DNA of 64,000 nt from Myxococcales bacterium (lineage in GTDB: Bacteria > Desulfobacterota > Binatia > HRBIN30). How positions within the stretch are numbered: position 1 is the first letter of the stretch; every line of letters begins with the position of its first letter. Made by a program: the position numbers and the translations under genes. The notes under the pieces are model-generated. The model did no database searches, was not told the DNA's origin, and saw only the letters and a program-made list of their open reading frames with translations. The stretch lies in the NCBI GenBank assembly GCA_037445065.1, contig JBBILD010000001.1, forward strand, positions 160,001 to 224,000, read 5' to 3'. Shown here piece by piece: positions 2,139 through 56,213 of this stretch.

Positions 2139-2211
2139 GGTGAGTGAAGGGGCTTGAACCCTCAACCCCCGGAGCCACAGTCCGGTGCTCTGCCGTTGAG
2201 CTACACTCACC
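2139..2211 (-). tRNA. tRNA-His(GTG) with encoded G-1, no encoded CCA
   Basis: Minus strand G-GTGAGTG...CACTCAC-C acceptor stem, anticodon arm CCGGA-CTGTGGC-TCCGG, T-loop GGTTCAAGCC. Confidence 0.96.
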
Positions 2212-2314
2212 ACCTGTCGGACTTGTGAGCCGAGGAAAATACGAAAAGTCCCCCCTCGGCGCAAGGCGGTTGGCGTTCGCTGGGAGTCGATTTGCCGCCG
2301 GCGCGGCGGTGAAG

Positions 2315-2388
<74 letters not shown>

Positions 2389-2428
2389 GTTTTGCCCTTC
2401 GAACAAGTTCTTTCCCGCCAAGGTTCAG

Positions 2429-2502
2429 TCGGGGTGAGAGGATTTGAACCTCCGACTCCCTGCGCCCAAGGCAGGTGCGCTACCAGGCTGCGCTACACCC
2501 CG
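2429..2502 (-). tRNA. tRNA-Pro(TGG), no encoded CCA
   Basis: Acceptor CGGGGTG/CACCCCG, anticodon arm CCTGC-CTTGGGC-GCAGG, GGTTCAAATCC. Confidence 0.96.
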
Positions 2503-35098: not shown

Positions 35099-35560
35099 AT
35101 GGCGCAAGCGGGTTTTTACGCCATACCACCACAGCGGCTTTCGTTTCGGAAAGATGGCCGCTGGTACGCAAACGATGAGCCGGTGACGCACGAGCGGCTA
35201 GCTCGGTTTTTCAGCCGCTACCTGAGGCGCAAGCCAGACGGCTCCGGGTATGAGGTGTGGGTGGACGAGCGCTTCCACGCGGACGTTGAGGTGGAAGACA
35301 CACCATACGTAGTCACGGCTGTGCAGCGCGACGCAGAAGGAGCGTGGCAGGTATGTCTCAACGACGGTCGTTGGGAACCGCTGGTCATTGAGTCGTTGTC
35401 CTCGGGTTCCGACGGCGCCTTGTACTGCTCCGTGCCGAATGGCGAGCGCGCCCGCTTCTTGCGCCAGCCTCAAGCTTACTTACTCGAGCACGTGGAAGAA
35501 GAGGGCGGCCTCTTCTACCTAATGCAGCGTGGCCAGCGCGTGCCTTTACCCGTCCGATGA
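35099..35560 (+). CDS. DUF1285-like protein
   Basis: DGRWY...L.RFFSRYL...VEVEDTPYVV pattern. Confidence 0.7.
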   Translation: MAQAGFYAIPPQRLSFRKDGRWYANDEPVTHERLARFFSRYLRRKPDGSGYEVWVDERFHADVEVEDTPYVVTAVQRDAEGAWQVCLNDGRWEPLVIESLSSGSDGALYCSVPNGERARFLRQPQAYLLEHVEEEGGLFYLMQRGQRVPLPVR

Positions 35561-36017
35561 TCCGAAATTTCACGTCGTCTTGGTCGCACCAGAAATTCCC
35601 CCGAACACGGGGAGTATCGGGAGGCTCTGTGCCGCGACGCGCTGCCGCCTGCACCTCGTTCGCCCGCTCGGCTTCTCGCTCGAAGACCGTTACCTGAAAC
35701 GAGCCGGCTTGGATTACTGGCCCTACGTGGACCTTGAGGTTCATGACTCCTGGGAAGCGTTCCGCGCACGCTATCCGAGCCTCAAGCTCCACTTGTTTTC
35801 TGCGCGTTCGACGCGCTCGTTCTGGCAAGGCTGCTATCGGCCGGGCGATGCGCTGGTGTTCGGCAGCGAAAGCCGCGGCTTGCCGCGGGAATTGCTGGCC
35901 GCTTACCCGGAGGATACGTACGTAATCCCGATCTCGCATCCGAACGTGCGCAGCTTGAACTTATCCAACGCTGTTTCGATTGTGTTGTACGAAGCCTTGC
36001 GGCAAAGCCTATTGTGA
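35529..36017 (+). CDS. trmL: tRNA (cytidine/uridine-34-2'-O)-methyltransferase (start ambiguous)
   Basis: HVVLVAPEIPPNTG, RAGLDYW, FGSESRGLP, RSLNLSN. Confidence 0.93.
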   Translation: MASACLYPSDDPKFHVVLVAPEIPPNTGSIGRLCAATRCRLHLVRPLGFSLEDRYLKRAGLDYWPYVDLEVHDSWEAFRARYPSLKLHLFSARSTRSFWQGCYRPGDALVFGSESRGLPRELLAAYPEDTYVIPISHPNVRSLNLSNAVSIVLYEALRQSLL

Positions 36018-36020
36018 CGC

Positions 36021-37094
36021 ATGCACCCAGAGCACGAGCTGGTTCTCGATTTTATCGCGCAGCCGGAGGCGCAGCGTTTTAACGAATTGGCTCTCGCTGT
36101 TTTTCGCCATCAGTTCGAGGCGATCCCGGAATACCGCCGCTGGTGCGTGCAACAAGGTGTTCGCCCAGAGGACGTGACCGACTGGCGCCACATCCCGCCG
36201 CTTCCGGCGGTGGCTCTCAAGTACCGGCAGTTCTCCTGTGGCGAGCCGGAGCGTGTGTTCCTGAGCAGTGGGACCACGCAAGGAACTGAGCGGCGGAGCC
36301 GCCACGCGATGCCCGATCTCCAGTTGTACAGAGCCTCGGCACTAGCTGGGCTCAAACGGTACTTGTTCCCGGACCTCGAGCGAATGCAGATTGTTTCTTT
36401 GATCCCGAGTGCGGAGGAGTGGCCACACTCCTCCTTAGCTCAGATGGTGAGTTGGGCCGTGGAGGAATTCGGGGTTCCGGGGAGCGGTTTCTTCGCAGCC
36501 GCGAATACGTTCGACTTTGTCCGCCTGCGCGAGCAGCTCGAGACGAGCAGTGCGGCAGGAGAGGCTGTGTGCTTGATGGCAACCACGGCCGGCTTAGTGC
36601 GGTTCTTGGATCACTGCCAAGCGGCGGGATGGAGCGTGCGCTTGCCGCACGGCAGCCGCGTCATGGATACCGGCGGGCAAAAAGGAGTCGAACGCCCGCT
36701 TTCCCGCCGAGGTTTGCTCCACGCAATTTGGCAGGCCCTCGCAGTCCCGGGTTACTTCGTGGTCAACGAGTACGGCATGAGCGAACTTTCCTCCCAGTAC
36801 TTTGACAGTGTGATCGCGGATCGCTGGTCGGGCAAACTTCTACCACGCCGAAAACTGGCACCACCTTGGTTACGAACCCGCGTACTCGAACCCGTCAACA
36901 TGCGAGAAGTTCCTCCTGGAGAAGTTGGTTTGCTGTGCCACGTGGACCTTGCCAATGCCGGCTCCGTGTTGGCGCTTCTGACCGAAGACCTCGGGCGCTT
37001 GGTAGACGGCGGGCTCGAGGTGGTGGGACGGGTCGCGGGTGCCGAGCCGCGAGGGTGTTCGCTGGCCACCGGGGACTTTGTCGAGGGAGCGTGA
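36021..37094 (+). CDS. LuxE-family acyl-protein synthetase
   Basis: IPPLP..ALK, FLSSGTT, MDTGGQKG, NEYGMSELSSQ, DLAN, TEDLG, C-terminal RGCS acylation Cys. Confidence 0.88.
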   Translation: MHPEHELVLDFIAQPEAQRFNELALAVFRHQFEAIPEYRRWCVQQGVRPEDVTDWRHIPPLPAVALKYRQFSCGEPERVFLSSGTTQGTERRSRHAMPDLQLYRASALAGLKRYLFPDLERMQIVSLIPSAEEWPHSSLAQMVSWAVEEFGVPGSGFFAAANTFDFVRLREQLETSSAAGEAVCLMATTAGLVRFLDHCQAAGWSVRLPHGSRVMDTGGQKGVERPLSRRGLLHAIWQALAVPGYFVVNEYGMSELSSQYFDSVIADRWSGKLLPRRKLAPPWLRTRVLEPVNMREVPPGEVGLLCHVDLANAGSVLALLTEDLGRLVDGGLEVVGRVAGAEPRGCSLATGDFVEGA

Positions 37095-38440
37095 GCAACG
37101 TTGTGGGATGGACGCCGAGAGCATCCTCTCGCATCCCGCGTGTGGGCGGCATGTGCATGAATCACGGAGCGCACTCGGGGCCCCAAAATTCGGCACCGCC
37201 CCTGGAGGAAAGCCGAGCCATCTGCGGGCGCTTGGAGCGGTTGCGCTGGGCCGCTGGCCGTCTACGCCAACGGCCGCTTCGACAGAGGTTGGCTGCGCTT
37301 GAACGAGTTCGGGCGCAGTGGCTAGCCCCCGGATCGAGCTGGCTGGAGCGCGCTACCACCGAGATCGCAGCTGCCACTGGTTTTCATCCAAACATGGTGC
37401 GCCATGCGTTGCCTTTTCACTTCGAACCTCTCCACCCTGCACAGGTGCGCAAGTTGATGCGCGAAGAACTTAGCGCCTCACTGCGCGCTCGCAGCGGCGC
37501 AAGCCCTTCCCCAGAGATCATCGTTTTCGTGCTTGCTGGGAATCTTCCCGGCTTGGCGATTTGGCCTGCGTTCCTCGGCCTCGCGGTGGGCGCTGGTGTT
37601 GTGCTGAAGCCTGCAGCGGGGGACCCGGTATCTCCGTGGCTCCTGCTCGAATCCATTCGCTGCGCCGCTCCGGAGTTGGCAGAAGCGGTCTGGGTGTTTG
37701 CGTGGCGCGGCGGGGACCGCGTGGTCGAAAAGGCGTTGTTCGCAAAGGCGGATCTGGTGGTGGCGCAAGGAAGCGACGCGACCGTCACGGCCCTCGCCTC
37801 TTGGGTGCCGTGTCGCTTTTTGGGATACGGCTCGCGCTTGAGTTGCGCATTCGTGGCTCGAGAGATCCTGGAGCAGCGGCGCTGGCAACGAGTCGCAGCT
37901 CGCCGCTTGGCTACCGACGTGACGATTTGGGATCAAAGAGGTTGCCTTTCCCCGCACGTGTGTTTCGTGGAGTGCCAGAGTCCCCACGACCTAGACTCAT
38001 TCGGGGAATTGGTGGCTGCAGAGTTGCACCGCCTAGCGTGCATCTTGCCGCCCCGCCGGCGTACGGCTTGGGAGCAAGCTGCGGTGCGGTCCTTTCGCGA
38101 TCAGGCGCTATGGTCTGGGGCGAGGTTGCTTGGTAGCGAGGCCGACCTGGCATGGTCGCTGGCGATCGAGCCGGAAGCAAGTGTGCAGGCGACTTGCGGT
38201 GACCGCTGCGTTCGCGTGCAGCCTGTAGCCAATCTCGATGCACTGCGGGCCGCAATCGAGCCGCACTGCGGGACTCTCGAAGCTGTGGGGGTAGCGGTGG
38301 GGCGGAGGCGGCACGCGCAGGTGGTGGAGACGCTGCGTGGTGCTGGAGTTGCGAACGTGGTGCGGCTCGGGTCCATGCAGCGCCCCACGCTCGCCTGGAA
38401 GCCAGGCGGCCGTCCGCGGATCGGTGAATGGTTTGTGTGA
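37091..38440 (+). CDS. LuxC-family acyl-CoA/acyl-protein reductase
   Basis: GTGA overlap with luxE; AGNLP, LKPA, QGSDATV, GYGSRLS, catalytic DQRGCLSP. Confidence 0.85.
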   Translation: MSNVVGWTPRASSRIPRVGGMCMNHGAHSGPQNSAPPLEESRAICGRLERLRWAAGRLRQRPLRQRLAALERVRAQWLAPGSSWLERATTEIAAATGFHPNMVRHALPFHFEPLHPAQVRKLMREELSASLRARSGASPSPEIIVFVLAGNLPGLAIWPAFLGLAVGAGVVLKPAAGDPVSPWLLLESIRCAAPELAEAVWVFAWRGGDRVVEKALFAKADLVVAQGSDATVTALASWVPCRFLGYGSRLSCAFVAREILEQRRWQRVAARRLATDVTIWDQRGCLSPHVCFVECQSPHDLDSFGELVAAELHRLACILPPRRRTAWEQAAVRSFRDQALWSGARLLGSEADLAWSLAIEPEASVQATCGDRCVRVQPVANLDALRAAIEPHCGTLEAVGVAVGRRRHAQVVETLRGAGVANVVRLGSMQRPTLAWKPGGRPRIGEWFV

Positions 38441-38450
38441 GAGAGCGCTC

Positions 38451-39653
38451 ATGACCGAACGGAGTCTACGGGAAACGTTTTTTCGCCATGTTTGCCAAAC
38501 CTCGCCGGAGCCGCTGGGAATCGAGGTGGTGAAAGCGCAGGGAAGTCGAATCTGGGATCGTCAAGGTCGGGCCTACCTCGATCTGCTTGCGGGGATGGGA
38601 GTCGCGAATCTCGGTCACAACCACCCGTCCGTGGTCAGGGCAATCGCGGAACAAGCGAGCAGGTACCTTCACGTAGCGGTGTACGGGGAAATGGTTCTCG
38701 AACCTCAAGTGCGACTCGCGGAGACCTTGGCTGAAGTGAGCCCGGGAGAACTCTCCGTGGTGTATTTTGCCAACAGTGGCGCCGAGGCGATCGAGGGAGC
38801 GATGAAGGCAGCACGGAAGTTTACCGACCGCTCGCGCTTCGTTGCGTTCGAGGGGGCCTTTCACGGAGACACGCTGGGGGCACTGTCCTTGAACGGAAAC
38901 CCGTTGTACCGAGAGCCGTTCGAGCCCCTGTTGCCGGTGGTGGACTTCCTGCCGTACGGGTCGTCCGAGGTTTTGGGCCGCATTGGGCACGACGTGGCGG
39001 CGGTCATTGTGGAGCCGTTGCAAAGCGAAGGAGGTGTGCGCATTCCTCCGGATGACTTCTTGCCTTCGTTGCGCGAGCGCTGCCGGGAGGTGGGTGCGCT
39101 TTTGGTATTCGACGAAGTGCTCACGGGTTTTGGACGTACCGGTAAGTTGTTTGCCTGCAACCACTGGGAGGTGACGCCAGATATCCTGGTCCTCGCCAAA
39201 GCACTTGGTGGGGGCCTTCCCTTGGGTGCCTTCGTTGGCACGGCGGAGGTGATGCGCACTTTGGGAGAGAATCCACCTTTAGCGCACGTCACCACGTTCG
39301 GAGGACACCCTCTCAGTTGCGCGGCTGGCTTGGCGGCGTTGCGGGTGTTGCTGGAGGAAAACTGGATCCAGCGAGCCGCACGGGTCGGCGAGCAGTGGCG
39401 CAGGGATCTCGAACGAGCGCTGGCCGGTGCCGTGCGGGAAGTCCGGGGGCGCGGGATGTTGGTAGGGATCGAGTTCGATACTGCGGAGCGCACGCGCGCT
39501 TTTGCCCGCGAGTGCCTAGCCCGTGGACTAATTGCGAGCGGGACCTTGCACTGTGACAACGTGCTGCGCCTGCTGCCCCCGCTCACAATCGAGGAGGGAG
39601 AACTGGAATTCGCCACGCAAGTCATGGCAGAGGCAGCACGTCAGATTCGGTAG
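38451..39653 (+). CDS. Class III PLP aminotransferase (ArgD-like fold, QTSP subfamily)
   Basis: YLDLLAG, NSGAEAIEG, FHGDT, DEVLTGFGRTG, AKALGGG, TTFGG. Confidence 0.9.
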   Translation: MTERSLRETFFRHVCQTSPEPLGIEVVKAQGSRIWDRQGRAYLDLLAGMGVANLGHNHPSVVRAIAEQASRYLHVAVYGEMVLEPQVRLAETLAEVSPGELSVVYFANSGAEAIEGAMKAARKFTDRSRFVAFEGAFHGDTLGALSLNGNPLYREPFEPLLPVVDFLPYGSSEVLGRIGHDVAAVIVEPLQSEGGVRIPPDDFLPSLRERCREVGALLVFDEVLTGFGRTGKLFACNHWEVTPDILVLAKALGGGLPLGAFVGTAEVMRTLGENPPLAHVTTFGGHPLSCAAGLAALRVLLEENWIQRAARVGEQWRRDLERALAGAVREVRGRGMLVGIEFDTAERTRAFARECLARGLIASGTLHCDNVLRLLPPLTIEEGELEFATQVMAEAARQIR

Positions 39654-39669
39654 AGGAGTCCTGCACGCA

Positions 39670-40899
39670 ATGAAGGCGCTGGTTGTCACGAACAATATCC
39701 CGCGGATCGCCGTTACCAGGCTGCTCGCTGCGTTCACGCCGCGGGCGTATGTGAGCGCCGTGGCGCCGCTGGCTCTGCGTGACTTGCCTGTTCCCCCGCT
39801 GCGACCACGCTGGGTGCGAATCCGTACGGTTCTCTGTGGCCTGTGTGGCAGCGACTACAAACAAGTGTTCCTAAAAGGAGCGATGGACAATCCCATGACC
39901 GCGGTCATTTCGTGGCCCCAGGTGCTCGGTCACGAGGTGGTCGGTGTGGTGGAAGAGATCGGCAGGGAAGTCGATCCGGCTTGGCTCGGCAGGCGCGTCG
40001 TCTTGAATCCATGGCTTTGGTGCGAGGTGCGCGGGATCGAGCCCGCTTGTGAATGGTGCCGGAACGGTGACTACGCGCAGTGCCGGAACTTCACGCGCGG
40101 TACGATCGCGCCTGGGATTCATCATGGAAACAGCCGCGACGCCACCGGTGGTTTTGCCGAGCTGGTGCCCGCGCACGTGGCACAGTTAGTACCGATTCCC
40201 GATGCGGTGAGTTTCGACCGCGCGGTGTTGGCCGATCCGTTCTCCGTGTCTCTGCACGCCACCCTGCGCAACCCTCCGCCTCCGAATGGCACGGCTGTGG
40301 TGTATGGTTGTGGTACGCTGGGCCTGCTGAACGTGGCGATTCTGCGGTTGCTGTTTCCGGGGGTGCGTGTGCTTGCCGTGGCGCGGTATCCGCACCAGGC
40401 TGAGCAAGCGGTTGCCTTCGGAGCACAGGAAGTGGTGCCTTGGCGTCCCCTGCCTAGCCTGCTCGAGCGGATTGCGGCGGTCACTGGTGCCGAGTTGTTG
40501 CAGCCTTGGCGTGGGTTGCCGATGTTGGACGGTGGTGTGGATGTCGTCTACGATTCCGTAGGCTCTCCGGAGACAATCGAAGTCGGTGTCCGGATCACGC
40601 GCAGCCGGGGGAAGATCGTAGTCACGGGAGTCGAAATGCCCCGGCGCTTCGAGTGGACCCCGCTGTACTTCAAGGAGATTTCCTTGGTGGGATCCAATGC
40701 ATTCGGCGTGGAAGAATGGGAGGGACGGCGGCAGCATGCGATGGAGTGGTACCTGGAGTGGGTACGAGCGCGAGATCTCGATCTGACTTCGATCATCACC
40801 CATCGCTTTCCGCTGAGCGCTTACCGGGACGCGTTCCTGGCGTGCTTCGATCAGGGCCGTTCCCGCGCCATCAAAGTGCTGTTTACCTTCCCGCACTAG
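39670..40899 (+). CDS. Zn-dependent alcohol dehydrogenase (MDR)
   Basis: GLCGSD, GHEVVG, C..C..C..C Zn site, GCGTLG. Confidence 0.9.
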   Translation: MKALVVTNNIPRIAVTRLLAAFTPRAYVSAVAPLALRDLPVPPLRPRWVRIRTVLCGLCGSDYKQVFLKGAMDNPMTAVISWPQVLGHEVVGVVEEIGREVDPAWLGRRVVLNPWLWCEVRGIEPACEWCRNGDYAQCRNFTRGTIAPGIHHGNSRDATGGFAELVPAHVAQLVPIPDAVSFDRAVLADPFSVSLHATLRNPPPPNGTAVVYGCGTLGLLNVAILRLLFPGVRVLAVARYPHQAEQAVAFGAQEVVPWRPLPSLLERIAAVTGAELLQPWRGLPMLDGGVDVVYDSVGSPETIEVGVRITRSRGKIVVTGVEMPRRFEWTPLYFKEISLVGSNAFGVEEWEGRRQHAMEWYLEWVRARDLDLTSIITHRFPLSAYRDAFLACFDQGRSRAIKVLFTFPH

Positions 40900-40920
40900 G
40901 CCGCGCGTGCTCTAAAGCTT

Positions 40921-41322
40921 GTGACCTTCGCTGATTACCTGCACCCCGTTGTCGGTGGCTTGTTCCTCGCCCTGTGGTGGGTTGGGGGTAGCCTGGGGCT
41001 CAGGGCTCGCCGGGCGCGGCCGGGTGTGCGTGCTCAACTGCTGCGGCGCCACGAGTACCTGGCGCGCCTTGCCAGCGCCGGGCTCGCGGTGGCCTTTGCG
41101 AGCGGGATGGTCGCGGTTCTCTTTGGCCGCGAGGACCTGGTAGTCGGGTCTACGACCCACTTCAAAGTGGGCAGCGTGCTGGTGTTGGTCGCGGGCCTAC
41201 AGTGGATCAGCTCGCAGCAGATGCACCGGCCGTGGGTGCGGTCCGTGCACCCGTGGATTGGGGCCTTTGGCATGCTGCTCGGCGTAGCGCATGTCTTCTT
41301 TGGCCTGCAGCTTACGCGATAA
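40921..41322 (+). CDS. Four-TM membrane protein with His at helix starts (DUF4079 / cytochrome b561-like)
   Basis: YLHP, RRHE, TTHF, SVHP each precede a hydrophobic helix. Confidence 0.65.
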   Translation: MTFADYLHPVVGGLFLALWWVGGSLGLRARRARPGVRAQLLRRHEYLARLASAGLAVAFASGMVAVLFGREDLVVGSTTHFKVGSVLVLVAGLQWISSQQMHRPWVRSVHPWIGAFGMLLGVAHVFFGLQLTR

Positions 41323-41327: not shown

Positions 41328-42560
41328 CTACTCGTAACGCAACGCGGCGATCGGATCGAGTTGGGATGCTTTCCATGCCGGGTAGTAGCCGAAGAAGATC
41401 CCGACGGCTCCGGAAAACATGATTCCACCGACCACTGCTAGGGGTGACAGTAGTGTTGGCCAGTGGGCCAGGCTGGCGATCAGGAAAGACGCTGCGATGC
41501 CGAGCACTGCCCCGAGCAGCCCACCGGCGCCACTCAGCAACACCGCTTCGACGAGGAACTGCAGCAGAATGTGCTTTGGCTTGGCGCCTACGGCCATGCG
41601 AATGCCGATTTCTCGCGTGCGTTCGGTCACCGAGACGAGCAGGATGTTCATGATGCCGATGCCTCCGACGAGAAGAGAGATGGAGGCGACAGCGAACAGC
41701 AAGTGGGCCATCGTGCGGCTAGCGGTTTCGGAAGCGCGTGCCATATCCTCGAGGTTGCGTACGGTGAAGTCGTCCTCCTCACCGAGGGGAATGCGGTGGC
41801 GTTCGCGCAAAAGCAGGCGGATTTGTTCGGCAGCGGTGGCCATTTCCTCCAGGCGGGTCGCGGACGCAAAAATCAGGTCCACGACTCCAGGCCACTGCGT
41901 CCCGAGCAGGCGCCGCTCGGCGGTGTTGAACGGAACCACGATCAGGTCGTCTTGATCTTGCCCCCAGGCGGTCTGCCCTTTGCTCGCCAGGACGCCGATC
42001 ACTTGTAGGGGTACATTGCGCACTCGGATCGTGGCCCCAACGGGATCCTGGCCGGGGCCGAACAGTTGCTCGACGACCGTTTGTCCGAGCACGGCGACCC
42101 GAGCCGCAGCTTCGTCCTCGCGCTCGGAAAAAAACACGCCCCGCTCCACTGGCCAGTCTCGGATTGCTGGGAACGATGCGTTCGATCCCTGCAACACGGT
42201 GCTCCAGTTTTGTTCCGCATGGATGACTTGAACGATTTGCCTGCGTACGTAGGTGACTCCCGCGACCGCAGAACACTCCCGCTCGATGGCACGTGCGTCC
42301 GCCACCGTCAGCGTGGACACGCCACCCCAACCAGACCGCACTCCCGCGCTGGTGGTGGCGCCCGGCACGATCATGAGCAGGTTGGTCCCTAGACTCCGAA
42401 TTTGTTCCTGCACGGCTGCGCTCCCGCCCTGCCCAATGCTGACCATGGCAATGACCGCGGCAACGCCAATGATCACGCCCAGCATCGTCAAGGCCGAGCG
42501 GAGTTTGTTGCGCCGCAGTGCGGATAGCGCAGCAGCGAAGCTCAGGCGCAAGAGTTTCAT
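41328..42560 (-). CDS. MacB/FtsX-type ABC permease
   Basis: RSALTMLGVIIGV, VGGIGIMNI, ERTREIGIR, PAWKASQLDPI. Confidence 0.93.
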   Translation of the reverse strand: MKLLRLSFAAALSALRRNKLRSALTMLGVIIGVAAVIAMVSIGQGGSAAVQEQIRSLGTNLLMIVPGATTSAGVRSGWGGVSTLTVADARAIERECSAVAGVTYVRRQIVQVIHAEQNWSTVLQGSNASFPAIRDWPVERGVFFSEREDEAAARVAVLGQTVVEQLFGPGQDPVGATIRVRNVPLQVIGVLASKGQTAWGQDQDDLIVVPFNTAERRLLGTQWPGVVDLIFASATRLEEMATAAEQIRLLLRERHRIPLGEEDDFTVRNLEDMARASETASRTMAHLLFAVASISLLVGGIGIMNILLVSVTERTREIGIRMAVGAKPKHILLQFLVEAVLLSGAGGLLGAVLGIAASFLIASLAHWPTLLSPLAVVGGIMFSGAVGIFFGYYPAWKASQLDPIAALRYE

Positions 42561-43261
42561 CCTCCGACCCCTACCTGCCGGCCATCGTGCACCACCCGAC
42601 CATCGCGAAATTGAACGACGCGCTGTGCATAAGCGGCGATGTCGGGTTCGTGGGTGACCAGCACGATGGTGAGACCTCGCTCGCGGTTCAAGCGTTCGAG
42701 GAGGAGCATGAGGTCGCGGCTTGCAATCGAGTCGAGATTGCCCGTGGGCTCGTCTGCAAGCAAGAGGCGTGGCTCGGTGACGAGCGCTCGCGCAATCGCA
42801 ACCCGTTGCTGTTGGCCTCCGGAAAGTTGGCTCGGTAGGTGGTGTTCACGGTCGGCCAGACCGAGCGACGCGAGCATGGCACGGGCGCGGGGCTGCTGCT
42901 GCGCGAGTGGCAAATCGCTGTAGAATAGAGGTAATTCGACGTTCTCCAGGGCGGAGGCTCGCGGGAGCAAGTTGAAGTTTTGGAAAACAAAGCCGATGAA
43001 CCGGTTTCTGAGTTCGGCTCGCCCATCCGCCGAGAGGTGACTCACCTCTCGCCCGGCGAGCCGATAGCTGCCCCGCGACGGGCGGTCCAAACAACCGAGG
43101 ATGTTGAGAAAGGTAGACTTGCCGGACCCCGAAGGGCCAACCACGGCAATGAACTCGCCTGGAGCAATGGTCAGCGACACTTCTCGCAACGCAGCGTGCT
43201 CGAGGTCCCCGGCCGAGTAGACCTTCCACAAATCGCGTACTTCAACGAGCGGCTCGTTCAT
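42557..43261 (-). CDS. ABC ATP-binding protein (MacB/LolD-type)
   Basis: [26 protein letters not shown]. Confidence 0.95.
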
Positions 43262-43270
43262 CTTCCGCAA

Positions 43271-44467
43271 TTAGCGAAAGCGGAGCGGGCCACCGAGCAC
43301 AGGTGGTCGCGAACGCTCGGGCCCCTCGCGTGCGAAGCCGATCGCAAGCTGATCGCCCGTGCGCAGCGGACCGGACACAAGTTCCGCATAAATGTCGTTG
43401 CGAATACCGAGCGTGACATCGACCGCTTCGATGCTGCCATTGCGTACGACCCAAACCCGCGAGGATGTGGACGGTACCGGCGCCTGGGGTGCTCCTTCCG
43501 TGCTGGCTTTTCCGGGACGGAAGCGGAGGGCGCTCAGGGGAACCCGGATGACCGAGTTCTTTTCGGTAGTAACGATGGTCACGGTTGCCGTCATGCCCGG
43601 TTTGAGCGAGAGGTCGGAGTTGTCCACGCTGAGCACCACGTCGTAAGTGACCACGTTCTGCACTACCGTTGGTGCATTGCGTACTTGGACCACCGTGCCC
43701 TCGAAGCGCCGCTCGCCATACGCGTCCACCGTGAAGGTGGCCCGCTGCCCCTCACGAACCTGGCCAATATCGGATTCGCTGACTGCCGCGTTCACTTGCA
43801 TCTTGGTGAGGTCGTCGGCGATCAGGAAGAGGGTAGGCGTTTGAAAACTTGCGGCGACCGTTTGGCCGACGTTTACGTTGCGGGATACCACCACGCCGTC
43901 GACCGGCGATACAATGTCGGTGTACGCTAGATTCACTTGCGCGTCGTCGAGTTCTGCCTCTGCCTGGGCCACCGCCGCCTGTGAGAGAAGGACCTGTGCC
44001 CGCGCTTGTTCGTAGTCGCTTCGCGCTTGATCCAAGTCACTGCGAGCGATGAGATCACGTGCGAACAAGCGTTGGTATCGTTGGTAGGTGAGTCGCTTGA
44101 GGGAGAGATCAATGCGGTCCTTTTCCAGTTTGGCCCGCGCGTTCTCGAGGCTCGCCCGCGCTTTGCGCACTTTGACCTCAAAAGGGGCGGGGTCAATCTT
44201 GGCTACCCGCTGATTGCGCCGCACGGGTGAGTTGAAGTCCACATCAATGGCGATAATCCGGCCAGAGACGTAGGTGCCAACCTGCACGGTGGTGACTGGG
44301 TTCACGGTTCCGTTTGCGGTTACTGTGGTGACGATCGGACCTTGGTCAACGACCGCTGTACGGTAGGTTTCTGCAGGTTGTTTCTGACTTCGCACCCAGA
44401 AAGCGGTGAGGGAGAGCGCGGCTGCCACCGCCGCAGCTACGCTGATGGCAGCAAGGCCGCGCCTCAC
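43271..44467 (-). CDS. MacA-like periplasmic adaptor
   Basis: VQVGTYVSG, SPVDGVV, GQTVAASFQTPTLF, LKPGMTA; GTGA overlap with the RND stop. Confidence 0.9.
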   Translation of the reverse strand: MRRGLAAISVAAAVAAALSLTAFWVRSQKQPAETYRTAVVDQGPIVTTVTANGTVNPVTTVQVGTYVSGRIIAIDVDFNSPVRRNQRVAKIDPAPFEVKVRKARASLENARAKLEKDRIDLSLKRLTYQRYQRLFARDLIARSDLDQARSDYEQARAQVLLSQAAVAQAEAELDDAQVNLAYTDIVSPVDGVVVSRNVNVGQTVAASFQTPTLFLIADDLTKMQVNAAVSESDIGQVREGQRATFTVDAYGERRFEGTVVQVRNAPTVVQNVVTYDVVLSVDNSDLSLKPGMTATVTIVTTEKNSVIRVPLSALRFRPGKASTEGAPQAPVPSTSSRVWVVRNGSIEAVDVTLGIRNDIYAELVSGPLRTGDQLAIGFAREGPERSRPPVLGGPLRFR

Positions 44468-47400
44468 ACCGTACCCCCCGAAGTGACCGGCGACGGTGCC
44501 GAGATTCCTCGCCACCGGCGTAACCAGCCCGAGAAGGATTCCAGGTAGGTATAGTACACCGGGGTGAGGTAGAGGGTGACGAGTTGGGAGAACAGCAATC
44601 CGCCGACGACCGCGACGCCAAGGGGCCGTCTGGATGTTCCCCCTCCACCCATGGCAAGCGCGATGGGTAAGGCTCCTAAAAGGGCAGCCATCGTGGTCAT
44701 CATGATCGGGCGAAAGCGAATCAGGCACCCCTGGACGATCGCTTCCAGCGGCTCCTTGCCCTCGCGCCGTTGCGCTTCTAGGGCGAAGTCAATTTGCATG
44801 ATCGCGTTCTTCTTGACGATCCCAATCAAGAGAATGACGCCCACGAACCCATACACATTGAGTTCCATGCCAAAGAGTTCCAGGGCAACCAACGCTCCGA
44901 AACCAGCCGAAGGAAGCCCGGAGAGGATCGTCAGCGGGTGCCAGTAGCTCTCATAGAGAATGCCGAGCACAAGGTAGATGACGAGTACGGCCGCGATCAG
45001 CAGGAGCCACATACCCGTGAGGGAAGCGGTGAAGGCTTGCGCGGCACCCTGAAAGCTGGTCGTGATGTTTGCCGGCAGTACCTGCTGAGCGACTCGTTCA
45101 ATGGCAGACACAGCTTGGCTCAACGAGTAGCCCGGGGCCAAGTTGAACGACAGAGTGACGGCCGGCAGTTGGCCTGCGTGGTTGACCGTCAGCGGTCCCT
45201 CTCTACGCTGGAGGCGGGCGAGACCGGTGAGAGGCACCAACTCTCCGTGTGCGGAGCGCAGGTAGAGCCAGGGAAGCTGTGACGGATCTGTTTGGAATCG
45301 GTCCTGCACCTCGAGCAAGACTTTGTACTGGTTGTTCGGCGCGTAAATGGTGGAAATCCACCGATCTCCGTAAGCCGCGTGTAAGCCGAGTTCGATTTGC
45401 TCGGCGCTCACGCCGAGTGTGCTGGCCCGATCGCGGTCAATGACAACGTCGAGGTACGGGTTCCGCAGTTGCAGGTCGCTAGTGACGTCGCGCAGCTCCG
45501 GCAGGGACAGCAGAGCGGCCTCCAATTTGGCTGCGGCTTCGAACAGGGCGCCTGTGTCCGGACTTTGCAGCGTGAACTGGTACAAACTTTTTGTGAGCTG
45601 GCCGCCGATTCGTACAGTCGGCAGCTCTTGCAGAAACACCTTTACCGCAGGAAAGTGTGCGGTTTTTGCTCGCAAGCGTGCCAAGACCTCAGGCAGTGGT
45701 TCCCGCTCGTGCCTCGGTTTGAGGAAAACGAATAACCGGCCTTGGTTGACCGTGCTGCCCGCCGTGGCACTGGTGCCGATGACGCTGGCCGAGACCACCC
45801 TGACGGCGGGGTCGGCGCGGATCACATCCGCAACTGCACTGTGGTACTGCCGCATCGCCTCGAAGGAAACACCTTGGTCTGCTTCCACAACACCGAAGAT
45901 CGAGCCAAGGTCATCGTTCGGGATAAAGCCTTTCGGAACCCGGGCAAACAGCCACAAAGTGATGCCGAGCAGGGCCAGTGAAGCGATGAACGTGGCACGC
46001 CGGTAACGCAAAACGAAGCGCAGGCTCTGTCCATAGGCATCGCGTAGGGTGTCAAAGGCCCGTTCTGACGCTTGGTACCAGCGAGAGCGGCTGGTCCGGT
46101 CGTGGTCGCGGAGAAAGCGGCTGCACAACATGGGCGTCAGGGTAAGCGACACCACGCCGGAGATGAGGATCGCTACGGAAATCACGACTGCGAATTCATG
46201 AAAGAGCCGGCCGACAATTCCGGGCATGAACAGGACGGGGATGAAGACGGCCACTAGCGACAGAGTCATGGACACAATTGTGAACCCGATTTCCCTCGCC
46301 CCGGTGATCGCGGCTTCGAAGGGAGGGCGCCCGAGTTCTCGGTGGCGCACGATGTTCTCCAGCATCACAATTGCGTCGTCCACAACGAAGCCGATCGAAA
46401 GAGTGAGCGCGAGTAGGGACAAGTTGTCGACGCTGAAGCCGAGCGGGTACATCACAGCGAACGTACCGATCAGGGAGACCGGTAACGCGAGACTCGGAAT
46501 GACGGTGGCGGGGAGGTCGCGCAGGAACAAGAAAATGACCGCGACGACAAGAACGAGCGCCAAGATCATCGTGAACTGCACTTCTCGGACTGACTCGCGA
46601 ATGGACTCCGACCGATCGAAGAGCACATGCATTTCGATCGCAGGAGGCAGAAACCGTTGCAGTTCCGGCAGCAGTCCGCGCACCGCCGAGGCCACCTGAA
46701 CCGTGTTCGAACCCGGCTGTCGCTGTACGGCGAGCACGATGGCTCGCTGGCGGCGCTCGAGGTTGCCGAACCAAGTCGCAGCGCGGTCATCCTCGACTCC
46801 GTCAATCACGTTTGCGACGTCTGCGAGGCGGACCGGAGCCCCGTTGCGGTATGCGATGATTACCGGACGGTACTGCTCTGCCGACAAAAGTTGGCCGGTG
46901 GCCAGCACCGTGAATCGCTGAGAGGGGCCTTGTAGGATCCCGGTCGGTAGGTTCACGTTCGCGCTGCGGATCGCACCTTCGACTTCGTCAATTCCCAAGT
47001 TGCGCGCAGCCAGTTCGCGCGGGTCTACTTGCACCCGAATGGCATACTTCTGTGCTCCGAAGACCAGTACCTGCGCCACATCGGGAACCATCGAGATCCG
47101 CTGCGCGATCAAGGTGTCGCCGTACTCATGCAGTTCCCACATCGGCAGCGTCGCCGAGGTCAGGCTGATGAAGAGAATCGGCTGGTCCGCAGGGTTGACC
47201 TTTTGAAAGGTCGGCGGGGAAGGCATGTCGGGCGGCAAGAGAGGCAGTGCTCGCGCGATTGCGGCCTGGACGTCCTGCGCGGCCGCATCAATGTCCCGGT
47301 TCAACTCGAACTGGAGGGTGATTTGCGTGGTACCGAGCGAACTCACCGAGTTCATGGAGGTGATCCCGGCGATGGTGGAGAACTGGCGTTCGAGAGGGGT

Positions 47401-47592
47401 GGCAACGGCAGAAGCCATGGTCTCCGGATTCGCGCCAGGAAGGGAGGCACTGACGAGCAGCGTGGGAAAGTCCACGTTCGGCAGGTCGCTGACGGGTAAG
47501 GAACGATACGCGAACAAGCCAAACGCCACGAAGGCCACCATCAATAGGGAGGTGGCAACCGAACGGCGAATGAACAGCTCCGAGAAGCTCAT
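44464..47592 (-). CDS. RND efflux permease (MdtB/C-like)
   Basis: LPNVDFPT, VVDDAIVMLEN, KKNAI, RFRPIMMTT. Confidence 0.93.
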   Translation of the reverse strand: MSFSELFIRRSVATSLLMVAFVAFGLFAYRSLPVSDLPNVDFPTLLVSASLPGANPETMASAVATPLERQFSTIAGITSMNSVSSLGTTQITLQFELNRDIDAAAQDVQAAIARALPLLPPDMPSPPTFQKVNPADQPILFISLTSATLPMWELHEYGDTLIAQRISMVPDVAQVLVFGAQKYAIRVQVDPRELAARNLGIDEVEGAIRSANVNLPTGILQGPSQRFTVLATGQLLSAEQYRPVIIAYRNGAPVRLADVANVIDGVEDDRAATWFGNLERRQRAIVLAVQRQPGSNTVQVASAVRGLLPELQRFLPPAIEMHVLFDRSESIRESVREVQFTMILALVLVVAVIFLFLRDLPATVIPSLALPVSLIGTFAVMYPLGFSVDNLSLLALTLSIGFVVDDAIVMLENIVRHRELGRPPFEAAITGAREIGFTIVSMTLSLVAVFIPVLFMPGIVGRLFHEFAVVISVAILISGVVSLTLTPMLCSRFLRDHDRTSRSRWYQASERAFDTLRDAYGQSLRFVLRYRRATFIASLALLGITLWLFARVPKGFIPNDDLGSIFGVVEADQGVSFEAMRQYHSAVADVIRADPAVRVVSASVIGTSATAGSTVNQGRLFVFLKPRHEREPLPEVLARLRAKTAHFPAVKVFLQELPTVRIGGQLTKSLYQFTLQSPDTGALFEAAAKLEAALLSLPELRDVTSDLQLRNPYLDVVIDRDRASTLGVSAEQIELGLHAAYGDRWISTIYAPNNQYKVLLEVQDRFQTDPSQLPWLYLRSAHGELVPLTGLARLQRREGPLTVNHAGQLPAVTLSFNLAPGYSLSQAVSAIERVAQQVLPANITTSFQGAAQAFTASLTGMWLLLIAAVLVIYLVLGILYESYWHPLTILSGLPSAGFGALVALELFGMELNVYGFVGVILLIGIVKKNAIMQIDFALEAQRREGKEPLEAIVQGCLIRFRPIMMTTMAALLGALPIALAMGGGGTSRRPLGVAVVGGLLFSQLVTLYLTPVYYTYLESFSGWLRRWRGISAPSPVTSGGTV

Positions 47593-48755
47593 GACCTGCC
47601 CTGACCCGCTCCCGGCTGCGCAGATCCCGGCGTTCGCGACCGGATCTCGACGGCAGCCCCGTCCGTGAGGCGGAACTGCCCCTCCGTGACGACCCACTGT
47701 CCGGCCTCGAGTTCTCCCTCGACGACCACCTGGTCACCGTACTCGAACACCACTCGCAGCGGCGCCACTCGCACGCGGTCTGTCCCTTCAATGCGAAACA
47801 CGTACGTGCCCTGCTGGCCCACCTGCACCGCGGCGCGCGGAATGACCAGTGCTCCGGCTACTTGGCCTACGATGAGTTCCAGCGGCACAAACTGTCCTGG
47901 CCACAGCTCCTCGCCGGTGTTCGGAAAGGAGGCCTTGAGCAGAACGGTTCCAGTGGACCGCTGTACCGTGTTGTCAATGAAATCCAGGATGCCCTGCGCG
48001 CGTACGTTGGCGTCGTTTGCCGCATCGGCCCAAACCTGCACGGGGAGTCGAAGTGCAGAGCTGCGGACCTCGGCCAAATCTTGCTCGCGAATCTGGAAGG
48101 CCACGCGCACTGGCGACATCTGTTGGACCACGGTGAGCACCGTCTCTTGCTTGCGCACCACGTTACCCGCATGAACGAACACCTGGCTTGCTCTCCCGGC
48201 GAGCGGAGAGCGAATCGAGCAATACTCGAGTTGCAGTTGTGCATCGGCAACCGCGGCTCGATCGGCTTCGACCGAAGCCTCGAGAGTGGCCACTCGGGTT
48301 TGTGCGGCTTCGTTCTCTTCGGCGGAGATCAGACCCTGCTCGAACAGCGCGGCACGCCTTCTGGCTTCGGCACGGGCATTCGTGAGTTCCGCTTGGTCGC
48401 GGCGTAGAGCAGCCTGGCGCTGCCGTAACAGCGCTTCAAAGGGTCGCCGATCGATCGTGAAGAGGAGTTGACCCTCCTCGACCCGTTGGCCCTCGCTGAA
48501 ATGCACGGCGGCAATCGCGCCGTCAACCTGTGGCATGATGCGTACAGAGTGCGGAGATTCGACCGCCCCGATCGCCTTGATGGTGCGCGGCACGGTGCGA
48601 CGTTCCACTTGTGTGACCGTAACCGGAGCCGGCTTCTGCTGGGTGGTGGGCCCTCCGGCTTGGTGTTGGTTGCATGCGGAAATGAGGCTGACCAGTCCGC
48701 AGAGCAGCGCGGTAAGGAGACGCCCGCACGAGCGGGTCGGGTGCTCAAGGGACAC
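47589..48755 (-). CDS. RND membrane fusion protein (MdtA-like lipoprotein)
   Basis: ISAC lipobox, PQVDG, IRSPLAG, IDNTV, LWPGQF. Confidence 0.9.
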   Translation of the reverse strand: MSLEHPTRSCGRLLTALLCGLVSLISACNQHQAGGPTTQQKPAPVTVTQVERRTVPRTIKAIGAVESPHSVRIMPQVDGAIAAVHFSEGQRVEEGQLLFTIDRRPFEALLRQRQAALRRDQAELTNARAEARRRAALFEQGLISAEENEAAQTRVATLEASVEADRAAVADAQLQLEYCSIRSPLAGRASQVFVHAGNVVRKQETVLTVVQQMSPVRVAFQIREQDLAEVRSSALRLPVQVWADAANDANVRAQGILDFIDNTVQRSTGTVLLKASFPNTGEELWPGQFVPLELIVGQVAGALVIPRAAVQVGQQGTYVFRIEGTDRVRVAPLRVVFEYGDQVVVEGELEAGQWVVTEGQFRLTDGAAVEIRSRTPGSAQPGAGQGRS

Positions 48756-50166
48756 GCGGAACCTCCACAGGTTTGACTGATTGTTTCAAAAGCTCGCTGC
48801 GGGGTGTGGCCGTGGCGCGTTCCAAGGAGGCGAGGGATGTGTGAAGGTTCTGGACCGATTGGACCAGTTGACCACGCGCTGAGAGGAGTAACGCTTGCGC
48901 GTCCGTTAACTCGATCACGCTTCCCACGCCGGTTTCATACCGGCCTTCCGCCAGGGTGAAGTTCGCTTGTGCTTCCTCTACGGCTCGCTCAGCCACACGG
49001 AAAGATTCTTGGGCCTCCCCTGCGCGCAGGAGTGCCTGCCGGACCTCCAAGGCAATGTCGCGTTGCAGACCGAGCGCTTCAGCTTCGAGTTCCTCTGCTC
49101 GCGCCTTTGCCTCTGCAGTTTGTGCCACCACTAGCCCTCCCGAGAACAGGGGCATTGTGACGGCCGCGCCCACATTCCAATTCGATTGCAGGGGGTAATC
49201 CGCTCCTGACCATTCGTACTGACCGCTGCCCTGAACGGTAGGAAGGTGGCTCTTCTCCAAAAATGAGATTCGCTCCTGGGCGGCGCGTTGCTGAGCGCGG
49301 AGGCTCGCCAATTCCGGTCGCTGTTCGTAGGCGCGCTGTACGAGGAGTTCCGGGTCGAACTGCGGCAGAACTGGGAGCGGTACATCCTCGATGTCGAAGC
49401 GAGGTTCTTCTTCCAGGCCGAGGGCGTTGCCCAGAGTCTCACGGCCCAGCCGGACATTGTTGTGAGCCCGCAAAAGGTTGAGTTCGTTGTTGGCGAGCTG
49501 GCTGCGCTGCCGGGTAACATCCAACGGGGGTGCGAGCCCCACCTCGAGGCGCGCTTGCGCCAGCTCCAAGTGCCTTCGGCTTTGGCGGACTCCTTCCTCA
49601 GCGACGCGGACCAGTTGCTGGCTCGCGAGGAGCGCAAAATAGGCTTGTTGCACTTGGAAGACGACGTTTGCCCGTTGCGTGTCGAGATCGGCTGCGGCTG
49701 CCTCGCTTTCGGCGAGTGCGGCACGTAGTGCGCTGAGGTTTTGACCGAAATCGAAGAGAAGTTGGGAAAAACTTATGCCGGTATTGAAGAAGTTGAAGGT
49801 CTGCGACGCAGTGCCGAGCGTGGTCCCAGTGCGCGCTGCCACGCTCGTATTGCGGCGGTTCGCCGAGTAAACCGCATCGATCCGCGGTAGGTATGCGGTG
49901 GCGGCCTGGCGGGATCGGGCCAGCGCTTGGCTCAATTTTGCCGCGCTCGCGTGTAGAGAGGGGTGCAGCTCGAGGGCAAGGGCTATGCAATCTTCGAGGG
50001 ACTTGGTCTCAGCGGGTCCGCGGGCAGGTGCAACGGCGATCGGAAGAAGCACAAATGCCAAGATCCAGGTGGGCGAGAGAGCGGACCGACGTTTTCGCCG
50101 ACTCGCGACCCCGGCTCGTCCCTGGAGCTCCCGCGCGCCCGTTTCGCCAATCGTCCGGCGCGACAT
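48745..50166 (-). CDS. TolC-family outer membrane factor
   Basis: SLEDCIALALELHP, LLFDFG, PLFSGG, RYETGVG. Confidence 0.9.
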   Translation of the reverse strand: MSRRTIGETGARELQGRAGVASRRKRRSALSPTWILAFVLLPIAVAPARGPAETKSLEDCIALALELHPSLHASAAKLSQALARSRQAATAYLPRIDAVYSANRRNTSVAARTGTTLGTASQTFNFFNTGISFSQLLFDFGQNLSALRAALAESEAAAADLDTQRANVVFQVQQAYFALLASQQLVRVAEEGVRQSRRHLELAQARLEVGLAPPLDVTRQRSQLANNELNLLRAHNNVRLGRETLGNALGLEEEPRFDIEDVPLPVLPQFDPELLVQRAYEQRPELASLRAQQRAAQERISFLEKSHLPTVQGSGQYEWSGADYPLQSNWNVGAAVTMPLFSGGLVVAQTAEAKARAEELEAEALGLQRDIALEVRQALLRAGEAQESFRVAERAVEEAQANFTLAEGRYETGVGSVIELTDAQALLLSARGQLVQSVQNLHTSLASLERATATPRSELLKQSVKPVEVPRVP

Positions 50167-50187
50167 TCCTGGGATGCATCCTCGCCG

Positions 50188-51954
50188 TCAGAAGCGCGAC
50201 CACCATGGCGCGGTTTCCTGGGAGCGCGCCTCGACGATCACATTGCGTGCCTGCAGCAAGGTTCCCTCGACGCGGCGCAGCTCGGCCAGGTCCATGTTGT
50301 AGCGCGCCAGCGCCTCCGCCTCTGCCGCCTGAGCTTGCGTGAGGCGGGTGGTGTAGTCGAGCAAGTCCTTGGTCGTTGCGAGCCCTACCTCGTACCGGGC
50401 CCGTTGGCTTCGCACGTTCTCCTCGGCGAGTAAACGAGCGGCGCGCGTTGCTTCGATGGCCTTGAGGTCGCTTTCCAGATTACTGACCGCGGTTTTGACT
50501 TCTAACGTCACTGCCTCTTGGAGTTGTTGCAAGGAGAGGTGCGATTGGGAAAGCGCGATGTTTGCTTGCGTGTAATTGGCTTTTGCCTGAGCGTTGGTCA
50601 GCGGGATTTCGATCGTTGCACCAACGGTGTAGTTGTAAAAGCGCCCATCCGGGAGCAATCCGAGTGCATCTCCGTAACCGCCAACGAACGAGGGGTTCAC
50701 TGGGATCACTTGCGGTGGATTGCCAAACGTGACTTTCTGATCCTTGCCCGCGACGCCGTTCACTCCGATGCCAGCCACCAGGTTCAGTTGGGGTAGCAAC
50801 TGGTTCTCGGCTACTTTGCGTTGTAAGGCGCGGGAGCGGACGGCAAGTCGGGCTGCGAGGAGTTCGGGTCGTTGTTCGACGGCGGTCGCGAGACTGCGCT
50901 CGAGATCGATCGGGTAGGCCTCGACTGCCGGTTTCTCGGCACTGTCGATCATCAACAGTACGTTTTCTTCCGGTCCCCGCGCGTTGACAAGTGCGCGCAG
51001 TTGGTCCCTGGCGACCACCACCGCGTTGCGCGCCCGGATCAGTTGGGCCTCGCGGTTGGCGACCTCCGCTTGTGCCTCCAGGACCGCCGTTTGCGGCAAT
51101 GCTCCGACCCGGAACTTGCCTTCGTTCTGCCGCAGTACCTCTCTTGCGAGCGCCAAACCTTGCTCCTGTACGCGCACGTTTTCTTGCGCGAGCACCAAGC
51201 CCCAGTACGCACGCTCGACTTGCGCGATGAGATTCGAAATCGCCGCAACATACTGGTGGTAAGCGGATTCTTCCTGGGCCACGGCCGCGTCAACCAATAA
51301 AAGGGAGTAACGCCAGCCAAAATTCTGCAAGAGAGGTTGCACCAAATTGACGCTTAGGTTGGTCGTGTACAGGGGTACGAGCGGGTTGGCGAGCGAGGGA
51401 TTGGTGACCCGGCGGTTATTGCTGAACTGAACCGAGATCTGGCCGCCGGTGAGTAAGGTTTTCCGTAAGCCCGCGTTGAGCGTGAAGTTCTGATTGAACA
51501 ACCTGGGTGATCCGCCGGCGAACAGAATCGTTGTTGCCGGCTGGGTGGCTCGGTCACGGGTAAGATTCGCGAATGCCTTCGGATCGAAGATCGCTCGCGC
51601 TTGCCGTACGGCGGCGCGAGCGGTGAGCGGGTTTAAGCGCTGGATTTGCAGGGAAGTATTGTTTTGCAGCGCCAACGCAATGCACTGTGCCAAAGTGGTC
51701 GGTTGCATGCGCGCTTCGAGCAGGAGACCGTAATGAGAAAGATCCTCTTCCGCCGCACGCGCGTCCTCGGGTAACTCGCCACTCCATTGGTTCTTCAGCA
51801 CCTCGGCGAGATTTGGGATTTGATCCAGCAGCTCGACCGCCCGCAGAGTGGGGCTAGGAACTTCCCCCACGGAGATGGATTCGCGCGGCTCTGTGGCGAT
51901 CGCGCCTGCGCCCCATAGGAACGCCACCACCGTGATCAGCCACCTTCCTTTCAT
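50188..51954 (-). CDS. TolC-family outer membrane factor (long form)
   Basis: TLAQCIALALQNN, QPLLQNFG, RPEL, LLPQLNL, RYEVGLAT. Confidence 0.88.
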   Translation of the reverse strand: MKGRWLITVVAFLWGAGAIATEPRESISVGEVPSPTLRAVELLDQIPNLAEVLKNQWSGELPEDARAAEEDLSHYGLLLEARMQPTTLAQCIALALQNNTSLQIQRLNPLTARAAVRQARAIFDPKAFANLTRDRATQPATTILFAGGSPRLFNQNFTLNAGLRKTLLTGGQISVQFSNNRRVTNPSLANPLVPLYTTNLSVNLVQPLLQNFGWRYSLLLVDAAVAQEESAYHQYVAAISNLIAQVERAYWGLVLAQENVRVQEQGLALAREVLRQNEGKFRVGALPQTAVLEAQAEVANREAQLIRARNAVVVARDQLRALVNARGPEENVLLMIDSAEKPAVEAYPIDLERSLATAVEQRPELLAARLAVRSRALQRKVAENQLLPQLNLVAGIGVNGVAGKDQKVTFGNPPQVIPVNPSFVGGYGDALGLLPDGRFYNYTVGATIEIPLTNAQAKANYTQANIALSQSHLSLQQLQEAVTLEVKTAVSNLESDLKAIEATRAARLLAEENVRSQRARYEVGLATTKDLLDYTTRLTQAQAAEAEALARYNMDLAELRRVEGTLLQARNVIVEARSQETAPWWSRF

Positions 51955-51986
51955 CGGCGTCCTCCTTACTCGAGATCGCTCGTTTG

Positions 51987-56203: not shown

Positions 56204-56213
56204 AGAACCGAAC

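Follow-up and report, generated by a model that had tools for sequence, protein, structure and literature searches.

A conserved LuxE-LuxC-aminotransferase gene trio as a probable QueC/QueF-independent branch of queuosine synthesis in Binatia and other bacterial lineages

Introduction

Which acid is reduced by a LuxE- and LuxC-like enzyme pair that is encoded together with an aminotransferase, and what becomes of the aldehyde? The question is raised by five co-directional genes in a 64,000-nucleotide (nt) stretch of DNA from a member of Candidatus Binatia (contig JBBILD010000001.1, positions 160,001 to 224,000 of the forward strand; hereafter, the window). They encode a LuxE-like carboxylate activator, a LuxC-like thioester reductase, a class-III aminotransferase, a zinc-dependent MDR dehydrogenase, and a small membrane protein of the DUF4079 family. 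A first-pass annotation of the window read the five genes as an acid-to-aldehyde-to-amine or -alcohol pathway, with either fatty amines and alcohols or a terminal amine made without a kinase as the product. Here we compare the locus with its relatives in public genomes and propose, at a probability of roughly 0.65, that the first three genes, hereafter the trio, supply preQ1, from which the tRNA nucleoside queuosine is made, independently of QueC and QueF.

In the canonical pathway, QueE forms 7-carboxy-7-deazaguanine (CDG), a carboxylic acid, which QueC converts to the nitrile preQ0 in an ATP-dependent reaction. QueF then turns the nitrile into the amine at the expense of NADPH, giving preQ1, the aminomethyl compound that matches CDG. 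QueA and QueG act later, on preQ1-tRNA and its product. To our knowledge, queuosine synthesis is regarded as solved, with this nitrile chemistry as the one route from CDG to preQ1, and genomes without queC and queF are generally taken to rely on salvage.

Results

The trio occupies the following positions of the window:

36021..37094, + strand: LuxE-like adenylate-forming carboxylate activator (PF04443, 60.9 bits; cut-off 24.9)
37091..38440, + strand: LuxC-like thioester reductase (PF05893, 149.5 bits; cut-off 21); start codon uncertain
38451..39653, + strand: class-III (omega) aminotransferase of a distinct clade (PF00202, 359 bits)

The first two genes overlap by 4 nt (GTG at 37091; LuxE stop codon TGA at 37092-37094) and 10 nt separate luxC from the aminotransferase gene. 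The LuxC start is doubtful, as the alignments with relatives begin only at about residue 22-77. The LuxC-like protein is the sole LuxC match in the genome.

Both predicted thioester-forming residues are intact. Aligned to the solved LuxE (7xc6_E; E=4e-12), the LuxE-like protein places its C-terminal RGCSLA over KGCSLS, and the acyl-carrying cysteine, C346, is invariant in 16/16 aligned relatives. A LuxC-like profile built from 18 relatives matches 7xc6_A with E=3e-36, placing DQRGCLSP over DQQACFSTQ, and the active-site cysteine, C285, is invariant in 18/18. These alignments bear out the first-pass annotation, which had called both cysteines intact from the window alone. The pair therefore shares with the LuxC-LuxE fatty acid reductase of Photobacterium phosphoreum (PDB 7XC6) both families and both thioester-carrying cysteines, and the ATP- and NADPH-dependent acid-to-aldehyde mechanism, described for LuxC-LuxE in a review (PMC12041015), is likely common to the two systems. 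Unlike the lux system, the pair in the window is coupled to an aminotransferase and to none of luxA, luxB, or luxD; the absence of these genes from the window had been noted earlier and was confirmed by a Pfam scan of the 51 window open reading frames (ORFs), in which no luciferase or LuxD family was found. Family names and the solved fatty acid reductase favor a fatty acid as substrate, which would be reduced to an aldehyde and then aminated by the aminotransferase or reduced to an alcohol by the dehydrogenase that follows the aminotransferase here, yielding precursors of amino- or ether-lipids. However, both proteins fall far below the equivalog cut-offs that define the lux enzymes: the LuxE-like protein scores 50.8 bits against 550 for the long-chain-fatty-acid ligase (NF052244), and the LuxC-like protein 39 bits against 750 for the fatty-acyl reductase (NF052251).

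The linkage of the three genes is conserved well beyond the source genome. A LuxC homolog was found in 57 of the 61 related (Binatia) genomes, the exceptions being G011 (81% complete), G017 (83%), G044 (91%; unpublished), and G053 (100%). Forty loci were fetched from these relatives; an aminotransferase related to that of the window is encoded in 37, immediately behind LuxC in 36, and LuxE is encoded in 34. Since the aminotransferase is found in 37/40 loci, the arrangement is not a product of chance. A search with a LuxE alignment confirmed 589 relatives in public genomes, and 80 of their loci were retained; in 50 of these, from several phyla, LuxE and the aminotransferase are neighbors, and many of the other 30 are cut by contig ends. 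The 50 include loci from Methylomirabilota (in the order aminotransferase-LuxE-LuxC), Nitrospirota, Eisenbacteria, and Limnocylindria, such that the trio ranges across Candidatus Binatia as well as Methylomirabilota, Nitrospirota, Eisenbacteria, and Chloroflexota. LuxC and the aminotransferase form a single ORF at three loci (L137, L138, and L144), and 20 long LuxE relatives comprise eight that join the LuxE and LuxC families, one that joins LuxE to an aminotransferase, and nine dehydrogenase-LuxE fusions; none of the 20 joins LuxE to a queuosine enzyme. This linkage, together with the LuxC-aminotransferase, LuxE-LuxC, and LuxE-aminotransferase fusions, supports an acid-to-amine chemistry. The general logic of the first-pass annotation, acid to aldehyde to amine, thus stood, while the substrates it had proposed found no support.

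Neighbor maps of the relatives, which are rough and were drawn by calling ORFs with a codon-position GC filter in GC-rich DNA, showed that the recurring neighbors are housekeeping genes (groES/EL, dtd, a release factor, and EPSP synthase). Genes for an acyl carrier protein, a thioesterase, or fatty-acid metabolism are not among the recurring neighbors in these maps, and the earlier proposal of a fatty amine or alcohol was not borne out, as no such genes travel with it. In addition, nearly every genome of the class has the unit, as a single copy, and its aminotransferase is 52-72% identical among relatives, even across phyla, features that count further against a fatty substrate.

Candidates for additional pathway genes were also considered. 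Gaps between luxE and luxC in some relatives proved to hold unrelated inserts or a mere long open frame, and the inserts between luxC and the aminotransferase gene in some Binatia are likewise unrelated genes (YkuD, an epimerase, and one without a family). At one Binatia locus, L090:2959-7233 (-), a gene for a 1424-residue Laminin_G_3/SpaA-like surface protein is inserted between luxE and luxC, in the orientation opposite to theirs.

Genes for queuosine synthesis recur next to the trio. At five Methylomirabilota loci, queG (QueG_DUF1730 plus Fer4_16) lies just upstream of the aminotransferase, luxE, and luxC genes and is co-directional with them. At L119, a Methylomirabilota locus, queE precedes luxE-luxC by ~120 nt on the same strand, and in genome G330 of the Gemmatimonadota, queE, luxE, and luxC are consecutive on one strand.

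To this neighborhood is added a phyletic pattern, in which the trio is found where QueC and QueF are missing. Tgt, the enzyme that inserts preQ1 into tRNA, is present in all of the Binatia (61/61). The QueF family gave 51 matches in the Binatia set at E<=0.001, 11 of them above the 27.3-bit cut-off, and among the 61 genomes only G053 encodes a full-length QueF (123 bits; TIGR03139, 178 bits against a cut-off of 87). The other matches cover profile positions 1-58/59 with 21-28 bits. Of the genomes without LuxC, G053 alone is complete, and it also carries one of only two strong QueC genes in the set (257 bits; the other, of 231 bits, is in G016). Among 121 genomes of Gemmatimonadota, QueF is found in none of the 15 that are LuxE-positive and in 73 of the 106 others (Fisher p = 2e-7), and true QueC (216-263 bits) in 0/15 and 87/106, respectively (Fisher p = 3e-10); the LuxE-positive G330 has only a QueC-like gene of 104 bits. 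When the unpublished genomes G322 and G282 are removed, the LuxE-positive group still scores 0/14, compared with 72/105 for QueF and 86/105 for QueC in the rest. QueE (TIGR04349), whose product would be the substrate, shows the reverse distribution (12/15 LuxE-positive genomes, 19/106 others), and LuxE-positive genomes hold 11 of the 12 highest QueE scores (266-304 bits overall).

Results from other lineages agree. Ten further trio-bearing genomes lack QueF (0/10), and Tgt was present in 5/5 tested. QueF occurs in 123 of 151 Nitrospirota and is absent from the sole genome with a strong LuxE (470 bits), a comparison of low statistical power since it depends on that one genome. Nine Nitrospirota with weaker LuxE-like genes (220-278 bits, matching the profile only to positions 334-336 of 349) all have QueF, and these genes likely represent a different subfamily; two such weaker copies stand side by side at G168:C17:24305-26575. 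Taken together, the neighborhood and the phyletic pattern tie the trio to queuosine synthesis. A fatty-acid route leaves both the complementarity with QueC/QueF and the adjacency to queE and queG unexplained.

The 6-pyruvoyl-tetrahydropterin synthase family (PTPS), to which QueD belongs, was tried as a discriminator among the Gemmatimonadota and dropped. In LuxE-positive members, PTPS lies beside a short-chain dehydrogenase (L197:3356-5252; L191:4243-5380; L193:3993-5265; L195:4351-5438), and in G330 it adjoins the 104-bit QueC-like gene as well. Since the PTPS-dehydrogenase pair may belong to a pterin pathway, PTPS alone is no proof of queuosine synthesis.

The source genome itself encodes the steps on either side of the gap. 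It has tgt with queA beside it and a queG ortholog (47% identity), and since both queA and queG are present, the cell needs preQ1. It also has folE and, 2 kb away, a radical-SAM queE-like gene that is 30% identical to the QueE of G016 and is matched best by five QueE models (70.8 to 35.8 bits), with NrdG2 (49.1 bits) ranking among them. Neither queC nor queF was found in a tblastn search of the genome with the G053 proteins, and Pfam gave only a 25.8-bit QueC match and a 27.3-bit QueF match, the latter lying inside folE. On contig C6 of this genome, outside the window, a ZMP/ZTP riboswitch (RF01750, 57.3 bits; L181:5397-5482, -) is located between folE and a class-V aminotransferase gene with serA.

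The aminotransferase is one of six class-III enzymes in the genome, which include a canonical argD beside argB, bioA, and hemL. Its best NCBIfam matches are acetylornithine and putrescine transaminases, and it falls below every NCBIfam cut-off: ArgD (TIGR00707), 359 bits against 410; putrescine aminotransferase, 359.5 against 612 (NF008570) and 320.5 against 658.65 (TIGR03372); and PigE, 313.9 against 850. The closest solved structures are the E. coli putrescine aminotransferase 4uox (307 bits) and the Thermus acetylornithine/acetyl-lysine aminotransferase 1vef (289 bits). The conserved lysine, K250, and a C-terminal arginine, R373, are retained. A motif that reads FHGRT in ArgD and FHGKS in the putrescine enzyme 4uox reads FHGDT in this clade, with Asp in at least 90% of 14 alignment rows, rows that include ArgD itself. 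The arginine of FHGRT is one that we take to bind the substrate carboxylate in ArgD, OAT, and GabT.

These kinships speak for a second reading, in which the operon would make a small omega-amine without a kinase, i.e., putrescine from γ-aminobutyrate via 4-aminobutanal, ornithine from glutamate or N-acetylglutamate, lysine from aminoadipate, or beta-alanine from malonate. However, the matches are all below cut-off, and the ArgD arginine is Asp here and Lys in the putrescine enzyme. The first-pass annotation had asked whether the genome holds a separate argD, and it does: a canonical gene (496 bits against 410) lies beside argB on contig C11, and the aminotransferase of the trio is therefore not the sole ArgD. 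Considering that the genome also has argC, proB, aspartokinase, two asd genes, and panD, the cell does not need to make ornithine, proline, lysine, or beta-alanine by a kinase-free route, and with genes of its own for arginine, proline, lysine, and beta-alanine already present, such a route was set aside. Two decarboxylase genes of the Orn/Arg/DAP type, assigned at class level only, weigh the same way, and the earlier suggestion of a kinase-free terminal amine was not supported. The link to queuosine would also be left unexplained, and we regard an omega-amine product as unlikely.

The remaining genes of the cluster are less constant:

35529..36017, + strand: TrmL-like tRNA wobble-34 2'-O-methyltransferase (PF00588, 98 bits); a context gene, not a core part
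39670..40899, + strand: Zn-dependent MDR dehydrogenase/reductase, 409 amino acids (ADH_N, 76.3 bits; ADH_zinc_N, 65.5 bits)
40921..41322, + strand: DUF4079 small membrane protein (PF13301, 34.3 bits; cut-off 31.4)

The TrmL-like gene ends 3 nt before luxE, its product scores 175 bits with TIGR00185 (cut-off 190.6), and TrmL lies upstream of luxE in 10 of the 40 Binatia loci. Gaps of 16 nt and 21 nt precede the MDR and DUF4079 genes, respectively; ORFs, Pfam matches, and sequence junctions thus agree with the five co-directional genes, families, overlap, and spacings first described. Conservation of the linkage, which that description had left to be checked in relatives, was found for luxE, luxC, and the aminotransferase gene and not for the other two, as the MDR gene follows the aminotransferase in 13/40 loci and DUF4079 occurs in 11/40. 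The MDR protein reaches no equivalog (top NCBIfam match, 107 bits against a cut-off of 376), and nothing was found to support the suggested role of the DUF4079 protein as a redox partner. Therefore, the LuxE-like, LuxC-like, and aminotransferase genes are the conserved unit among the five, and MDR and DUF4079 are lineage-specific add-ons, not core parts.

Elsewhere in the window, positions 41328-56305 (-), which follow the operon, encode a MacB-type ABC permease and ATPase with an HlyD-type adaptor and, further on, two AcrB-type RND pumps, an outer-membrane factor, and another adaptor. Three consecutive tRNA genes (RF00005, 64.6-72.5 bits) lie at 2139-2502 (-).

Discussion

We favor the trio as a route from CDG to preQ1 in view of what was observed, namely its gene content and linkage, the fusions, the catalytic motifs, and the phyletic pattern. 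Since CDG is a carboxylic acid and preQ1 its aminomethyl counterpart, the conversion between them is precisely the chemistry predicted for the trio. In the proposed scheme, the LuxE-like enzyme would adenylate the carboxyl group of CDG and bind it to its C-terminal cysteine through a thioester; from there, the acyl group would move to the LuxC cysteine, where reduction by NAD(P)H would release 7-formyl-7-deazaguanine. The class-III aminotransferase would aminate this aldehyde to preQ1 (7-aminomethyl-7-deazaguanine), which Tgt would insert at tRNA position 34, with QueA and QueG completing queuosine. The proposed aldehyde is a known, stable compound, described in a review of QueF (PMC13740343) as a hydrolysis product released by QueF variants, which makes the chemistry plausible. 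In a literature search that covered sources outside subscription journals, we found no description of a LuxE/LuxC/aminotransferase route to preQ1 and no joint treatment of preQ1 or QueF with LuxC, or of queuosine with "acyl-protein synthetase."

Such a route would share with QueC/QueF its start (CDG) and its end (preQ1), as well as the upstream genes folE, queD, and queE and the downstream genes tgt, queA, and queG. Unlike QueC and QueF, the trio is drawn from unrelated enzyme families, its intermediate would be an aldehyde, whereas the canonical intermediates are an amide and a nitrile, and its nitrogen would come from an amino donor, whereas the canonical nitrogen comes from ammonia. As we read the counts, each system excludes the other in the sampled genomes.

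Several observations weigh against this assignment. The Binatia genome G016 (L041 and, on contig C341, L174) has the trio and also a canonical queD-queE-queC cluster on a small contig; this genome is rated 8% contaminated, and the co-occurrence may reflect contamination or true redundancy. QueC-like genes of 70-104 bits coexist with LuxC in G058, G021, G019, G025, G052, G059, and G330, and in G060 a QueC fragment of 38 bits lies where a contig ends. In the source genome, the queE-like gene scores 70.8 bits against a cut-off of 300 and the queD-like (PTPS) gene 53.5 against 89. The phyletic counts include related, non-independent genomes, many with completeness not given, and PTPS, present in 116/121 Gemmatimonadota, does not discriminate. 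No aminotransferase gene lies beside luxE-luxC in the Gemmatimonadota, and the best match in one of them, G063, is only 41% identical; in the Armatimonadota genome G225, a 55% identical ortholog is located elsewhere in the genome. Scans of the window and 56 loci at Rfam gathering scores gave no preQ1 riboswitch. The scheme gives the MDR and DUF4079 proteins no role and the Gemmatimonadota no enzyme for the third step, and it assigns the substrate, as well as the intermediate and the amino donor, from genomic context.

A further alternative keeps a 7-deazapurine acid as substrate, i.e., CDG or a related compound, with a product other than preQ1, while the queuosine precursor is salvaged from the environment. 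The same queE and queG neighborhoods would fit it, and so would the Gemmatimonadota without an adjacent aminotransferase gene. However, the complementarity is specifically with QueC and QueF, Tgt is present in all 61 relatives and the source genome has its own queA and queG for the steps that follow the insertion of preQ1, and several genomes encode the aminotransferase as a fusion with LuxC or LuxE. We consider this alternative improbable, to about the same degree as the omega-amine product discussed above.

A comparison with secondary metabolism bears on both the chemistry and the remaining alternative. An acid or thioester is likewise converted through an aldehyde to a primary amine by TabE and an aminotransferase in the synthesis of tambjamine BE-18591, and by modules of the PigE/TamH type. 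According to a preprint (10.1101/2025.08.11.669332), TabE clusters with LuxC, and this LuxC-like reductase and an aminotransferase make the alkylamine of that compound, a precedent for a fatty substrate. Those modules act on fatty acyl groups within secondary-metabolite clusters, in contrast to the trio, which is single-copy, set among housekeeping genes, and linked to queuosine. For these reasons, and with a context that suggests a deazapurine acid and not myristic acid, a fatty amine or alcohol is the least probable product of all.

A related operon suggests that LuxE-LuxC pairs may serve other cofactors as well. In two Chloroflexota loci (L143 and L165), an MDR-LuxE fusion stands in an operon with LuxC; its LuxE part is 42-43% identical to that of the window, and LuxC is again the partner. 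Unlike the trio, LuxE is here fused to a Zn-dehydrogenase, there is no aminotransferase, and both genomes keep QueF. At L143 (Thermomicrobiales), a TPP riboswitch (RF00059, 64.4 bits; L143:5617-5721, +) lies directly before the fusion gene (L143:5729-8080), which is followed by LuxC and then by an ABC permease. In a LuxE tree of 109 sequences (FastTree), rooted by choice on these fusions, L143 and L165 form their own branch (support 99), and the window sequence groups with Binatia (100), next to a group from Methylomirabilota and Nitrospirota in which the genes linked to queE and queG fall. The operon of L143 and L165 may represent an acid-to-alcohol system for a thiamine precursor.

On balance, it appears probable that a widespread, hitherto undescribed branch of queuosine synthesis replaces QueC/QueF in Binatia, Methylomirabilota, parts of the Gemmatimonadota and Nitrospirota, and other lineages, with a sister system that would act on a precursor of thiamine. 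Many uncultured phyla of soil and sediment would then be de novo producers of queuosine, and the replacement of QueC/QueF would be a clear case of non-orthologous displacement. Gene labels such as "acyl-protein synthetase," "acyl-CoA reductase," and "acetylornithine aminotransferase" would need correction at these loci. The trio would also provide an enzymatic means of converting a heteroaromatic acid into an aminomethyl group at the cost of one ATP and one NADPH, which may serve biocatalysis. More generally, lux-like pairs would then act as reductases of small heteroaromatic acids in the synthesis of cofactors and tRNA bases.

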